Made by a program: the position numbers and the translations under genes. DNA of 32,000 bases from Pyrobaculum aerophilum str. IM2. Its GTDB lineage: Archaea; Thermoproteota; Thermoprotei; Thermoproteales; Thermoproteaceae. This document shows, in pieces, positions 13,324 through 21,867 of this stretch. The notes below the pieces were generated by a model that was not told the DNA's origin, made no database searches, and saw only the letters and a program-made list of their open reading frames with translations. Where the stretch lies: contig NC_003364.1 of assembly GCF_000007225.1 (NCBI RefSeq), positions 1 to 32,000 on the forward strand. The letters run 5' to 3'. How positions within the stretch are numbered: the first letter of the stretch is position 1; each line of letters starts with the position of its first letter.

Positions 13324-14655
13324 GTGTACAAAGTCCGTATAAGGGGGATCTTCGCCACTGCGCTTACAAAACTAGCGCTTGAGTGGGGGTTTAAAATTGT
13401 ACAGCCAACTGGCAAAATCCTCCAGCGGTTTCAAATAGAAGCCGACTACTCGCCTCCCGACCTCACAGTTAAAGACCACGAGTCGAAAACTGGCGTCGTG
13501 GTGCTGGGGAAGTGCGAGGCCTTTGAGTCCTTTCTCCAAAGACTTGGGGAGTCCCTAGACCCAATAGTGGCCAGGGCCAGAGCCGGCGTAAAAGAGGTGT
13601 TCTCCGGGAAGGCCGTGGGGGAGCACGAGGTGGAGGGCCCACGCGGCGAGGTGTTTAAAGTGCCTGCACGCTACGTCTTAACGCCGGGAGGCACTGGCGT
13701 GTTCACAGTGGTGAAGCCCCCCGTTGGGCCTGTGAGCGGAGTCGCCGCCCCCGAAATAGCAGTTGAGGGGGATTACGTGGAGCTTAACACGTCAGGCAGA
13801 GTGACTTTCAGCGAGCACATCCCCCAGGAGGATAGGCTGAGGCTGGGCATTTTGGCGGAGACTAGGCTGAAACAATACGCCTCAATAGGCCTCAGGTTTA
13901 AATCCTCTGCGAAATACGCCGACGAGGAGCAGATTATAAAAGAGGCGGAGGTCCTCTACCGGGAGTTATTACAGCTGTCACATGGCGGGCCTCCTGGGGC
14001 TGTGTTGAGGAGGGGGAATTGCTTCGCCGTTGTTTTATTCGATAGACGCTCTAAAGAGGTTTTAGACTCCGCCAGGGCCTCGGCGGTGCCCACGGTGAGG
14101 GGTCACCACGCCTTAAGAGCACAGGGCCTGGGGAAGTGCCTAGATCTCCTAGACTACACAGGCGCTGATGTTTACGAAAAAGCCGTTGAGTTCCTCTCCA
14201 GAGGCCCCGTGCTTATTTACCACGTCAAGCCCTGGGGCGAGGTGGTGAAAATGAAGGGAGAGGCCCTAGGAGTGAAAAACGGGGTCTTAGTGGTGAAAAG
14301 GCCTTTAAAGCCCGGCGGCGTTTTAGACGGAATTGGCGTGAGGATAGAAAGGGGGTTTTACGCCTTGACGTGCATCCCCCGCGACGCCAATTACGTAGTC
14401 CACACTTATTACGACGGCTCTAACAACGTCGTGGGGACTTATATCAATATAAACACAACGCCCGAGTGGGGCCGGCGAGTGATATACATCGACCTCCTTG
14501 TGGACAAGACATACGCCGGAGGCGTGGAAAAAGTGTTAGACGTGGATGAGTTTGAAAAATACAAGGAGTACTTCCCCCAGCGTTTGAGAAACCCCCTGCA
14601 GCTCGCCCCCAGCGGTAGGCTGGAGTGCACAGCCGAGGGCCTTGTTGTGCGTTAA
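13324..14655 (+). CDS. fau-1: FAU-1 / RNase E-G-like RNA-binding ribonuclease (DUF402 C-terminus)
   Basis: GTG start. The N-terminus YKVRIRGIFATALTKLALEWGFKIVQPT matches the FAU-1 family start as I recall it. 443 aa. Confidence 0.7.
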   Translation: MYKVRIRGIFATALTKLALEWGFKIVQPTGKILQRFQIEADYSPPDLTVKDHESKTGVVVLGKCEAFESFLQRLGESLDPIVARARAGVKEVFSGKAVGEHEVEGPRGEVFKVPARYVLTPGGTGVFTVVKPPVGPVSGVAAPEIAVEGDYVELNTSGRVTFSEHIPQEDRLRLGILAETRLKQYASIGLRFKSSAKYADEEQIIKEAEVLYRELLQLSHGGPPGAVLRRGNCFAVVLFDRRSKEVLDSARASAVPTVRGHHALRAQGLGKCLDLLDYTGADVYEKAVEFLSRGPVLIYHVKPWGEVVKMKGEALGVKNGVLVVKRPLKPGGVLDGIGVRIERGFYALTCIPRDANYVVHTYYDGSNNVVGTYININTTPEWGRRVIYIDLLVDKTYAGGVEKVLDVDEFEKYKEYFPQRLRNPLQLAPSGRLECTAEGLVVR

Positions 14656-15275: not shown

Positions 15276-16158
15276 CCAAGGCGCCCTCTGTAATAGACGC
15301 GATTTTTACCTCAGCCCTCAGCCCCTCCTCTGCATATGCCCTTAACACTGCGTCCCTCACAGCCTCAGCCTCCTTCTCGTTGACTAACGCTATAACTGAG
15401 GGGCCCGCCCCAGAGAGAGAGACGCCGAGAGCCCCCGCCTCAAAGGCGTATTTCCTCACCCGGGCGTAACCCGGCACGTATGGGGCCCTCGCCGCCTCTA
15501 CTACTTCGTCTTCCATACCCCTGGCCACGAGCCGCGGATCCGACAGGGCGAGGCCGGCAATTAAAGAGGCGACTCTCGCCGTCTGTCTGACATAAGTTTT
15601 AAACTCCACCGACTTGGGCAACACCTCCCTCATGACTTTAGTCTTATTCGGCATGGGGGGCACCTCGGGGACTCCCACTACAAAAATCAAGCGCGGCGAG
15701 AACTTCACGTAGTCAATAGGCGATAGGGAGGTCAAGACCACAGCCCCTCCCAGGGCGGCCCCGGCCACGTTGTCAAAATGGGGGCTTCCGGCCGCGGCGG
15801 TTTCGCCGTAGCCTGCGGCCTCAATAACCGCCCGGGGGTCAGTCTTAATCCCCGCCTCTCTTATAAAAGCCGCCAGCGCCGCAACTGCGGCAGCGCCGCT
15901 ACTGCCGAGCCCCCTGGCAATGGGGATGTTGTTCTCCACCTCAACCTCCACCCCCCTGCAAATGCCGGTTAGTTCAAAAAACTTTTTAAAACTCCTGGTA
16001 ACTGTGTTCTCCGGCCCTGGGTCATAGCCCTTAAATTTGACGTGGACGCCGCACCCGGACCCCACAGCGGTGTATGCCTCGGCAAAATAGGCGTCGTGAG
16101 CCACTGCGACGATGTCAAAACCGGCCCCGAGGTTGGCGCTGGTCGACGGTGCCTTCAT
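15265..16158 (-). CDS. thrB: homoserine kinase (GHMP kinase)
   Basis: It has [13 protein letters not shown] at the N-terminus and [11 protein letters not shown] (GHMP motif II). 297 aa. Confidence 0.9.
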
Positions 16159-16786
16159 ATAATTGCCACTGCCTCACGGGGCCTCCGCTCCCCCCGGCTA
16201 TTTTCAAGGGAAGCGCAACGAATTGCCCCCGCCTCCCCACCACGGCATCTAAATTAGTGAGGTTTTCAAATATCAAAACCTCCCGCTTTAATAACACTTT
16301 ATGCACGTCAAAAGGCTCTCTATCAGGGCTGGGGGAGTCCAGGCCCACGGCGTTTACCCCCAGCTCAGCCAGGCGCTCTGCCAGCTCAACAGAAATCTCG
16401 GGGTACTCCAGCCACTTCTCCGTCCCGATATACTTATCAAAACCGGTTTTAATTAACACCACCCAGCCCGGCCCCAGCTCCACGCCCCTCGGCAGGGCGG
16501 CTTCGAATTCCCTAAGCTTAATAACCCCCCTCGGGGATACGTGGGAGAAGTCTAACGCGACGAATTGGCCGAAGAATTTCGAGACCTCCACCTCCTCCAA
16601 AGTCTTCCCCCCGGGTATGAAGTGGGCGGGGGCGTCCACATGTGTGGCGGTGTGTTCGTGGAAGTATAAAACGTTGCTGTAATAGCCGTGGACGTCGTAT
16701 TTAGTCCAGTTCAAAATCGCCGGCTTGGGCGACCCGGGGAATACCCCCATGCCGCTTTTTAACGCCATGGTTAAGTCTATATACAT
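16115..16786 (-). CDS. cyclase-family protein (kynurenine formamidase-like); 3' end probably frameshifted
   Basis: It has [12 protein letters not shown] and GLDSPSPD motifs. The start is set to ATG 16786, with a CTTATATAGG box at 16805-16814. The current C-terminus overlaps thrB by 44 nt. One extra G after AGG (16174-16172) would give ...GGPVRAVAII* and an ATGA overlap with thrB. Confidence 0.8.
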
Positions 16787-16904
16787 TGGCCGTAAATGAG
16801 CCTTCCTATATAAGTTTTTCACGGGGTATATATGGCGGAGGCAAAAGCCTAATACTACCTTGTACACTTGTTAAATCAATATAATATAAATATTATCAAA
16901 TTAC

Positions 16905-16917
16905 TGTTATAAAAAAG
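16905..16917 (+). promoter_or_regulatory. TATA-like box upstream of candidate ncRNA
   Basis: tgttataaaaaag is centred about 23 nt upstream of the first paired base (16934), inside a 60-bp almost pure A/T stretch. Confidence 0.4.
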
Positions 16918-16933
16918 ACATTACTATATACAA

Positions 16934-17074
16934 CCCACGGCGTCTGGCCGCCCCCGGGCCTAAGCCTCCGTGGCCCAACCACGGGGGTGACAGGGGGATA
17001 AACCGGCGGCGCTGGACGGGAACCCCCGCCCGGCGTTGCCGGCTAAATCGGCGCCGACGGCCAGGCGCCGTGGG
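16934..17074 (+). ncRNA. candidate structured non-coding RNA, family unknown
   Basis: A GC-rich 141-nt island lies between AT-rich flanks. 16934-16950 pairs with 17058-17074 (17 bp: 16 Watson-Crick plus one T16943-G17065 wobble). An internal 9-10-bp hairpin at 16965-16987 has a CCCAA loop, and a small hairpin lies at 17030-17042. The wobbles would be A-C mismatches on the other strand, which favours the + strand. ccttttct follows. No plausible ORF. Confidence 0.45.
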
Positions 17075-17080
17075 CCTTTT

Positions 17081-18223
17081 CTATTCATATCTAAGGGCTT
17101 CCACTATGTTTACTCTACTTGCTTTATAAGCAGGCCCCAGCACGCCCAGAATATTCGCCATCACCACAATAAACGCGGAGATGACGGCTATATACGGGGG
17201 GATGGCCAATTTGAGGAATATCCCAGGGCCCACGGGGATTGACACTGCAGATATTACGAAAAGGAGCGGCGTGGCTGTGAGCACGCCAATTGTCACCACG
17301 ATCAACGCCTCTGTTATTACTAATGTCATGATGTGGCGCCGTTTAAACCCCACTGCCCGCATAATTCCAATCTCCTTAATCCGTTGCAGTAGTGAAATTG
17401 TCATGGTGTCGTAGAGCCACAGCGCCGTCACTAAGGCGCTTACTCCGGCTAGAGCCCCCAAGCCCAGTTGTGCCGTAGAGATCACTTGGCCTAGTTGTTG
17501 CGACAGTGTCTGGGGGGAAAATATAACGGCATCTGGAAAATACGGCCTTAACTTTCCCACAGCGGCCGCAGCCGTTTCGGGGCTGTCAGTCACTACGTAG
17601 ATCATGAAGTACCGGCTGTCTGGCGCCAGGGATTTGTCCGCATATATTGAGGCCCCGGCTAATGGCCCTGGCATGCCCGACAAGTCCACTACGCCCGAGA
17701 CAATGAAATCCACTGTACTCCTCTCGCCGTGAAAAACAACTGGCGTCCCCGGTTCTAGCGGCATATCGCCGTACATTTTTATAGAACTGACGAAGAGAGC
17801 CAGCGATCCGGATATGTAAAGCTGGCCGCTCCTCAAAGCCGCTCTGGGCACTAACGCCTCTGTGAGCTCAGGGGGGATGTAGTACACCGTCACGCTGACT
17901 GTAGTCCCGTCTGGTAAATTCAAGTATCCCACATCACCTGTAATAGGTATTACTGTGGCAGTCGGCAGGAGGGATTTAACCACGGAGACATCCGCGTCCG
18001 TGAGGTATCCGCTTTGCGGCAACACCCACACTGTATTTAAGCCAAGGCTTTGAAAAGCGGCGACTATAGCTGTTCTGAAAGTTTCGCCTATTGACAAGGC
18101 CACTGTCAGCGCGAGGAAGGCCATAAAAACGCCAAAAGCCGCCAATGCAGATCTCCCGACCTTCTCTCTGACTGAAAGCCAAGCCAGACTAACTAGATCT
18201 CTTAACATGCCGTCTAACGCCAA
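17081..18223 (-). CDS. FtsX/MacB-type ABC transporter permease
   Basis: 380 aa with an N-terminal TM, a large extracytoplasmic domain and a C-terminal FtsX module (RIKEIGIMRAVGFKRRHI ... PAYKASRVNIVEALRYE). Confidence 0.85.
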   Translation of the reverse strand: MALDGMLRDLVSLAWLSVREKVGRSALAAFGVFMAFLALTVALSIGETFRTAIVAAFQSLGLNTVWVLPQSGYLTDADVSVVKSLLPTATVIPITGDVGYLNLPDGTTVSVTVYYIPPELTEALVPRAALRSGQLYISGSLALFVSSIKMYGDMPLEPGTPVVFHGERSTVDFIVSGVVDLSGMPGPLAGASIYADKSLAPDSRYFMIYVVTDSPETAAAAVGKLRPYFPDAVIFSPQTLSQQLGQVISTAQLGLGALAGVSALVTALWLYDTMTISLLQRIKEIGIMRAVGFKRRHIMTLVITEALIVVTIGVLTATPLLFVISAVSIPVGPGIFLKLAIPPYIAVISAFIVVMANILGVLGPAYKASRVNIVEALRYE

Positions 18224-21775: not shown

Positions 21776-21867
21776 TGGGGCCGCCGCCGGGATTTGAACC
21801 CGGGTCCTCCCGCGGCTCGCCGCAACGGGACCACAACCCGCCATCCTAACCGCTAGACTACGGCGGC
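21776..21867 (-). tRNA. tRNA, anticodon loop TTGTGGT (GTG = His) with a ~16-nt insertion after the anticodon stem; CCA encoded
   Basis: Hand fold: acceptor GCCGCCG/CGGCGGC, D-arm GTCT-AGCGGTTA-GGAT, anticodon stem GCGGG/CCCGT, T-arm CCGGG-TTCAAAT-CCCGG, discriminator C, then CCA (21778-21776). There are 21 nt between the anticodon stem and T-stem instead of about 5; they contain the hairpin GCGG-CGAG-CCGC. Confidence 0.8.

Follow-up and report, generated by a model that had tools for sequence, protein, structure and literature searches.

A GC-rich block in the genome of Pyrobaculum aerophilum str. IM2 raises the question of whether it is a gene for a structured RNA in its own right or an appendage of one of the genes beside it. 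The block lies within positions 1 to 32,000 of contig NC_003364.1, the 32-kb stretch analysed here and referred to as the window, in which an earlier note, written from the letters alone, had proposed a stand-alone structured non-coding RNA (ncRNA) gene on the forward (+) strand. That proposal is borne out by comparative data (31 homologues, compensatory base changes and a promoter), and the block is very probably a real, separately transcribed + strand gene for a conserved structured RNA of about 140 nt. The structured element occupies 16934-17074 (+), 141 nt in all, and has a GC content of 73%, compared with roughly 50-58% in its flanks. It stands between two genes of the opposite strand, which are indeed those that the note had named: a divergent cyclase gene (PF04199) and a convergent gene for an FtsX/MacB permease. 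The latter is an FtsX-like open reading frame (ORF; 17081-18223, -) that is 100% identical to P. aerophilum IM2 protein AAL62518. The element had also been judged to hold no believable ORF, and the homologues agree: open frames are uninformative at 73% GC, and a conserved reading frame is excluded because the lengths of the element differ among homologues by non-multiples of three.

The comparison draws on 31 distinct full-length sequences, obtained via synteny, one genome scan and one metagenome scan. They come from P. oguniense, P. neutrophilum, Pyrobaculum metagenome-assembled genomes (MAGs) and hot-spring metagenomes, and they form two clades, of which clade 1 comprises the named Pyrobaculum species and their relatives. 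Herein, the + strand RNA is predicted to fold as a three-way junction built from a closing stem (P1), an arm consisting of helix P2, an internal loop and hairpin P3, and a further hairpin (P4). The parts of the gene are given below by position in the window and strand.

16903..16915 (+): promoter box ACTGTTATAAAAA, resembling a B recognition element (BRE) and TATA box; AC[T/C]GTTA in 31/31 homologues.
16930..16933 (+): conserved 5' flank ACAA; clade 1 form A(C/T)A(A/G), clade 2 form AC(G/A)T.
16934..16950 (+): 5' strand of P1, 17 nt, CCCACGGCGTCTGGCCG, pairing with 17058-17074.
16951..16955 (+): 5' strand of P2, CCCCC, pairing with GGGGG at 16993-16997.
16956..16963 (+): 5' side of the internal loop, GGGCCUAA (GGCCUAA-type); the same in most of clade 1, AGGCCCAG in clade 2.
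16964..16988 (+): hairpin P3, 10 bp with loop CCCAA; the hairpin is kept, its sequence depends on the lineage.
16989..16997 (+): 3' side of the internal loop, GACA (16989-16992), followed by the 3' strand of P2, GGGGG (16993-16997).
16998..17002 (+): junction J2/4, AUAAA (AUAAG in most homologues).
17003..17042 (+): hairpin P4, in which a conserved A.C mismatch separates 13 bp from a further 4 bp, capped by a variable loop of 4-6 nt; several of its pairs are G.U.
17043..17057 (+): junction J4/1, CUAAAUCGGCGCCGA, including the palindrome CGGCGCCG at 17049-17056.
17058..17074 (+): 3' strand of P1, CGGCCAGGCGCCGTGGG, pairing with 16934-16950.
17075..17082 (+): pyrimidine/T-rich tail CCTTTTCT, likely an archaeal oligo-T termination site; it abuts the FtsX stop codon at 17081.

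The predicted minimum free energy (MFE) of the + strand is -104 kcal/mol, against -75.7 +/- 4.1 kcal/mol for shuffled sequences (z = -6.97; none of 200 equally stable), while the minus (-) strand reaches -95.9 kcal/mol (z = -4.0). The same architecture was obtained in 9/9 homologues, each folded singly. The strands of P1 are confined to this locus: allowing up to three mismatches, a search of the 32 kb meets the 17-mer and its complement and nothing else, two matches where 0.17 would be expected and none of 100 shuffles reaches two. Several details of the fold had been anticipated by the earlier note and others have to be redrawn. The closing stem is as claimed, with 16 Watson-Crick pairs and one U-G, and the inner hairpin stands with its 10 bp and its CCCAA loop, except that its limits are 16964-16988 and that it contains two wobbles instead of one. 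The supposed small hairpin at 17030-17042 is actually the 3' strand of the long P4 hairpin, which had been missed, and the GGGGG/CCCCC complementarity read as possible long-range or pseudoknot pairing is simply helix P2, with no pseudoknot evidence in the fold. The note had also raised bulge-helix-bulge (BHB) processing or circularisation; the BHB motif was not found. A K-turn, loop E, T-loop, hammerhead core and H/ACA or C/D motifs were likewise not found by eye.

The relatives show the conservation and compensatory changes that the note had asked for, with double changes in both P1 and P3. Covariation was counted in an alignment of the 31 sequences fitted to a covariance model. Standard pairs fill 96.4% of its 1456 pair cells, versus 91.2% in shuffles and 37-54% in slid registers, and the covariation score is 0.203, a value reached by none of 500 shuffles (0.118 +/- 0.005) and far above the 0.05-0.065 of slid registers. 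Across the alignment, 12 pairs change on both sides. Most of this signal comes from P1, where compensatory double changes affect 8/17 pairs; an alignment-free count at fixed offset recognizes 13 distinct P1 helices with 0-1 mismatches each, except for one sequence with a 1-nt deletion, and the helix is continuous and unbulged in 12 of these 13 variants. P3 occurs in 23 distinct versions, most of them hairpins of 8-11 bp with a C-rich loop, and three of its four modelled pairs change on both sides. P2 is paired in 94.8% of cells and varies little, and the 5' side of the internal loop is mostly conserved.

The remainder of the molecule is nearly frozen. Junction J2/4 keeps GGGGGAUAAG in all homologues except P. 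neutrophilum, and GGCGCCG in J4/1 is invariant in all homologues found independently of that motif. P4 has 97% of the cells of its 18 pairs filled by standard pairs; seven of the pairs never vary, 11 vary on one side (G-C to G-U, U-G to U-A), and the hairpin is nearly invariant in sequence, also in homologues found by synteny alone. P4 thus appears to be under a sequence-level constraint added to that of pairing. The alignment also informs on the strand, since it contains 145 G-U cells and the pairing falls from 96.4% when read on the + strand to 88.0% on the - strand. The + strand, already favoured in the note, is therefore preferred because the wobbles, the promoter box and the pyrimidine/T-rich tail all point there.

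The TATA-like box and the tail reported previously are both present, and the homologues lend them weight. The motif followed by an A/T-rich run (an invariant box of the type ACTGTTAwwAA) recurs in both clades, with its first A preceding the start of P1 by 31-33 nt (by exactly 32 nt in 27/31); it occurs once in the window, and the DNA around it is otherwise unalignable between the clades. This geometry is consistent with an archaeal BRE/TATA promoter, and archaeal TATA-to-start spacing would put the start of transcription at the 5' end of P1 or slightly within it, at about 16932-16938. At the other end, clade 1 homologues carry YCTTCTCT(T/C)TT directly after P1, and in clade 2 P1 is followed after about 17 nt by a T4 run.

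A number of further observations concern the promoter region. Some homologous loci carry the promoter-like box once more, as cACTGTT(T/A)(T/A)AA, 2-10 nt past the 3' end of the RNA (locus L018, about 2255-2275, -; L020-L025, about 2205-2225, -), where it precedes a GT2 glycosyltransferase gene in L018 and a 163-aa ORF in L020. It may be a duplicate left by rearrangement, a suggestion prompted by the single occurrence of the box in the 32-kb window. In clade 1, a motif GTA(T/A)TAC is found about 10 nt before the ACTGTTA box; the window has a weaker ATATTAT at about 16880-16900, and clade 2 lacks the motif, which may be part of the divergent cyclase promoter or a regulator-binding site. The cyclase ORF (16115-16786, -) had been listed with a GTG start at 16867, and its homologues indicate that the real start is an ATG, at 16786 (MYIDLTM...). 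This ATG is preceded at about 25 nt by a TATA-like box, which suggests a leaderless cyclase mRNA divergent from the RNA gene. The cyclase and RNA promoters share an A/T-rich spacer of 147 nt.

The genes around the RNA argue for its independence. In clade 1 the RNA is always divergent from a cyclase-GHMP kinase operon and its downstream neighbour varies, whereas the ten loci of clade 2 (nine distinct sequences) have none of the clade 1 neighbour genes nearby. In one of these, L098, the RNA follows a DUF2192 gene adjoining that of ribosomal protein uL16 and converges on a gene for a hydrolase; among named relatives, the best for this uL16 are from Pyrobaculum sp. MAGs (83-86%) and a Thermoproteaceae archaeon (75%). 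Depending on the locus, the downstream gene is a convergent FtsX gene, a convergent amino-acid permease gene with an overlap of 31 nt, a GT2 gene or a hydrolase gene. Because the neighbours in clade 2 are entirely different, the RNA is best regarded as an independent unit and not as an appendage of one gene. Neither the window nor the homologous loci contain a paralogue or repeat copy of it.

Two of these neighbourhoods deserve a separate remark. In P. neutrophilum (L017, 2243-2273), the last 31 nt of the RNA convergently overlap the end of the permease ORF (957-2273), an arrangement that resembles the convergent overlaps of small RNAs and ORFs in reports on the guide RNAs of Pyrobaculum. A P. 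aerophilum-like genome (GCA_003400145; L010, 1501-2627) has its FtsX gene split into ORFs of 241 aa and 137 aa, which suggests a frameshift or pseudogene, and the RNA beside it has retained 97% identity but lost 1 nt from the 3' strand of P1. Furthermore, a 443-aa protein with a C-terminal DUF402 domain (13324-14655, +) is encoded at a distance of 2-3 kb in almost every clade 1 locus. DUF402, the FAU-1 / RNase E-G-like RNA-binding family, makes it the only RNA-related protein of the neighbourhood; its proximity is probably plain synteny.

The homologues were reached by several routes, which determine what their conservation can tell. Synteny with FtsX led to two equivalently placed copies of the element, one at 84% identity in a MAG species of Pyrobaculum and the other in the P. 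aerophilum-like genome, and found none beside FtsX in six other loci (L004-L009), for which reason the linkage to FtsX was dropped for that to the cyclase. A genome scan with two conserved motifs, GGGCCTAA..ACAGGGGGATAA, gave real matches in P. oguniense TE7 and one MAG, together with four chance matches in coding or bacterial DNA; P. aerophilum itself was not returned from this collection, so that a missing match there does not amount to absence. In P. oguniense TE7 the neighbour of the element is the cyclase gene and not FtsX, and cyclase orthologues led to P. neutrophilum, more MAGs and Joint Genome Institute (JGI) contigs, in which the element sits within a gap of 230-310 nt upstream of the cyclase. 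A first metagenome pattern, requiring GGCTAAAT, gave zero matches because one of its bases varies in other species. A second metagenome scan, with a P4/J4-1 pattern, gave 119 matches, 25 of them real by nhmmer and the remaining 94 at noise level with the covariance model. The collection of viral contigs was scanned without a match.

The fold leaves room for a competing pairing around the palindrome. Three near-palindromic octamers of the form CGGCGYYG are present, two in the strands of P4 (17007-17014 and 17031-17038) and one in J4/1 (17049-17056), and any pair of the three can base-pair. In the MFE fold, P4 is complete, its strands being formed by CGGCGCUG and CGGCGUUG, the near-copies of CGGCGCCG, and the perfect palindrome itself is left free. 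RNAalifold, applied to the 31 sequences, shortens P4 and forms a UGCCG-GCNAAAU-CGGCG hairpin instead, a candidate alternative in which part of the palindrome (17049-17053) pairs with 17037-17041. The 31-sequence alignment contains no compensatory changes in support of either full P4 or the alternative hairpin, and this part of the RNA may be a conformational switch, may serve dimerisation or may be bound by a protein. As a separate observation, CGGCGCCG occurs six times in the window (17049, 18782, 20276, 21717, 26007 and 27504), where 1.2 copies would be expected and none of 100 shuffles reaches six; five of the six copies lie outside the RNA and may stem from codon usage or be sites with which the free palindrome pairs.

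As for function, the reading preferred here, to which we would give a probability of roughly 0.55, is that of a stable trans-acting RNA of about 140 nt that serves as the scaffold of a ribonucleoprotein (RNP) and is encoded by an independent gene in Pyrobaculum-lineage Thermoproteaceae. In such a particle the variable helices P1 and P3 would be struts that hold the structure at about 100 °C, and the invariant surface of P4 and the junction would be a sequence-specific recognition site, most likely bound by a protein partner. Recognition of sequence by a partner is suggested by the pattern of change, as P1 and P3 covary freely and the loops vary while P4 and the junction are frozen. A more striking form of the same idea, a long shot at present, would make the RNA a subunit of a new Thermoproteaceae-specific RNP or ribozyme, in its strongest version a separately encoded partner that restores to the minimised type T RNase P the substrate recognition it has lost, with the invariant surface of P4 and the junction as functional core and the competing CGGCGYYG folds acting as a switch.

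Several points weigh against an RNP scaffold. Neither clade shows a link between the RNA and a protein partner, so that the only support for the idea is the conservation pattern. None of the 18 pairs of P4 changes on both sides, and the alternative hairpin competes with the outer 7 bp of that helix. In addition, the metagenome pattern imposed TGGACGGG, CCGCC and GGCGCCG on 25 of the sequences, so that their invariance there was a product of the search and is tested only by the synteny-derived sequences, which are likewise invariant at these positions. The phylogenetic breadth is narrow, and part of the conservation could reflect recent common ancestry. Finally, the locus goes unmentioned in a survey of Pyrobaculum small RNAs, a survey that would miss an RNA of about 140 nt because it size-selected RNAs of 16-70 nt.

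Among the other functions to be weighed, the free palindrome brings in an RNA that acts by base-pairing or by self-dimerisation, with CGGCGCCG in J4/1 pairing with another copy (a kissing dimer) or with target RNAs and the rest serving as a stabilising scaffold. The palindrome is perfect, invariant and predicted to be unpaired in the MFE fold, its near-copies CGGCGCUG and CGGCGUUG would permit an exchange of pairing partners, and its sixfold occurrence in the window would suit a set of targets; however, an octamer can hardly specify a target, the analysis identified no target with a conserved complement, the enrichment in coding DNA may reflect codon usage only, and RNAalifold draws part of the palindrome into a local hairpin, which together make such a role unlikely. 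The chances are slighter still for an accessory RNA of tRNA or rRNA processing, for instance a partner making up for the specificity domain that type T RNase P RNA lacks. The 73% GC and the promoter style are like those of other housekeeping RNAs, and GGGGAUAAGCCGG and GCCGGCUAAAU may bear a short, weak resemblance to RNase P core motifs. The restriction of the element to the lineage with a minimised RNase P (PMC3579882) fits as well, but no RNase P model scores even at E <= 10, the topology differs in that P2 encloses P3 only and a long-range P4 pseudoknot is missing, and the published RNase P summary does not point to a need for a second RNA (PMC3579882).

Action in cis can be judged from the loci themselves. 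A leader or switch for a downstream GT2 gene, or the 3' untranslated region (UTR) or terminator of a neighbour, would agree with the two mutually exclusive folds, with the RNA lying 43-83 nt upstream of a same-strand GT2 gene in P. oguniense and in L018/L093, and with the contact between element and FtsX stop codon in the window. In the window, however, the distance to GT2 is 3.6 kb and opposite-strand genes intervene, and in clade 2 none of GT2, cyclase and FtsX is nearby. Past the T-rich tail of the RNA, GT2 is preceded by a promoter-like box of its own, FtsX loci in other species do without the element, and the element strand is opposite to both FtsX and cyclase; an attachment to any one gene is accordingly very improbable, and a riboswitch or cis-regulatory leader was rejected because the downstream gene varies and a T-rich tail follows P1. 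Hardly credible, lastly, is an element acting as DNA, whether a miniature inverted-repeat transposable element (MITE), a cluster of protein-binding palindromes or an origin-like feature. Its appeal lies in the 17-bp terminal inverted repeats, the palindromes CCCGGG and GGCGCC and the three CGGCGYYG repeats, which could be DNA-binding sites. Against it, the element is single-copy and syntenic in every locus, with its cyclase-side position kept in clade 1 and no flanking direct repeat; the viral contigs held no match; a conserved, oriented promoter is present; and the helices are kept through G-U intermediates that are A-C mismatches on the other strand and would be meaningless in duplex DNA.

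The note had found no match to 5S, SRP, RNase P, tRNA, C/D or H/ACA patterns, and scans with Rfam 15 (4227 models) agree with it. At the gathering threshold the window returned tRNA-His only; at E <= 10, 16800-17200 gave four unrelated weak matches, the best at 18 bits against a threshold of 45 bits; and in six homologous loci there was no match on the element strand and no family in common. Individual candidates, known ribozymes included, fared no better. RNase P, including type T, is rejected on the missing model match and on the topology given above, to which is added that the 17-bp stem lacks the 3'-side insertion for the 3' strand of P4. For 5S rRNA there is no RF00001 match at E <= 10, and the universal loop C and loop E sequences were not seen by eye; for signal recognition particle (SRP) RNA there is no Rfam match, and the element measures only 141 nt versus about 300 nt with helices 5, 6 and 8. 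An H/ACA or Pyrobaculum H/ACA-like guide is contradicted by the ACA after P3, which is replaced in homologues (AAAC, GCGC, CUAU, CAC or UUU), by an uninterrupted P3 and by the lack of a conserved tandem G.A. A C/D box small RNA is contradicted by the lack of both C (RUGAUGA) and D (CUGA) boxes in 16930-17082 and of an Rfam C/D match. For a tRNA, whether split, permuted or BHB-processed, ARAGORN finds only tRNA-His at 21776-21867, and P1 is unbulged in 12/13 variants. The Pyrobac-1 and Pyrobac-HINT motifs are different RNAs, as RF01722 was unmatched and the published sequences and coordinates (587219, 1080081, 1883639) differ (Weinberg 2010). The RNA is not described in the small-RNA survey, in the Thermoproteaceae RNase P paper or among the Weinberg 2010 motifs, nor did literal sequence strings lead to a description; genome browsers may hold annotations of it that were never published.

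The tRNA-His (GTG) itself, at 21776-21867 (-), is 89-92 nt long, above standard length, and therefore probably contains a short intron near the anticodon loop. Its CCA is apparently encoded, and its mature 5' end is preceded at about 20 nt by a TATA-like box rich in A/T.

To our knowledge, archaea have yielded few structured RNAs whose function is unknown, and Crenarchaeota hardly any apart from guide RNAs; the host lineage is already noted for the drastic reduction of its RNase P and for its unusual biology of tRNAs and guide RNAs. The present element carries the marks of a functional RNA, namely a dedicated conserved promoter, covariation in two helices, and a 40-nt hairpin and junction that are frozen while the rest drifts. 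If its transcription is confirmed, it would offer a single-copy target of 140 nt for finding a new archaeal RNA-protein complex or ribozyme, and it would represent a family that genome annotation pipelines currently miss. Judged by the scans and comparisons above, it appears to be an RNA family outside all described ones, a claim that concerns family membership and not a new mechanism.

Its place among known RNAs is best seen from the likenesses it shares with them. With 5S rRNA, an independent gene in Crenarchaeota, it has in common a size of about 120-140 nt and a closing helix, formed by the ends of the molecule, of a three-way junction with two arms, but its closing helix is 17 bp long and its 3' junction 15 nt. 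The Y RNAs and YrlA offer a long end-formed stem followed by a U-rich tail, internal structured modules and a length of about 100-140 nt; here P1 has no conserved bulge of the Ro-binding kind, and no tRNA-like module was found. Compared with type T RNase P RNA, which shares the restricted lineage, a stable terminal helix and a similar GC content, the element lacks the P4 pseudoknot, P15 and the GNRA L9, and is some 50 nt shorter. The type T RNA of Thermoproteaceae has a GC content of 74-78% (versus 73% in the element), is minimised with an architecture unlike that of the element, and has its true gene described elsewhere (PMC3579882).

The orphan GC-rich archaeal RNAs of the Pyrobac-1 (RF01722) type provide the remaining comparison. 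Like the element, they form GC-rich islands in lower-GC surroundings with an archaeal promoter of their own, are restricted to a genus or family, and combine covarying helices with no fixed gene association across clades. Further orphan GC-rich small RNA genes of hyperthermophilic archaea are the Hgc RNAs, reportedly described by Klein et al. in 2002. Pyrobac-1 itself is a hairpin of about 60 nt with an unrelated sequence and fold, whereas the element described here is larger, at about 140 nt, and combines a predicted three-way junction with an unusually invariant 40-nt hairpin.

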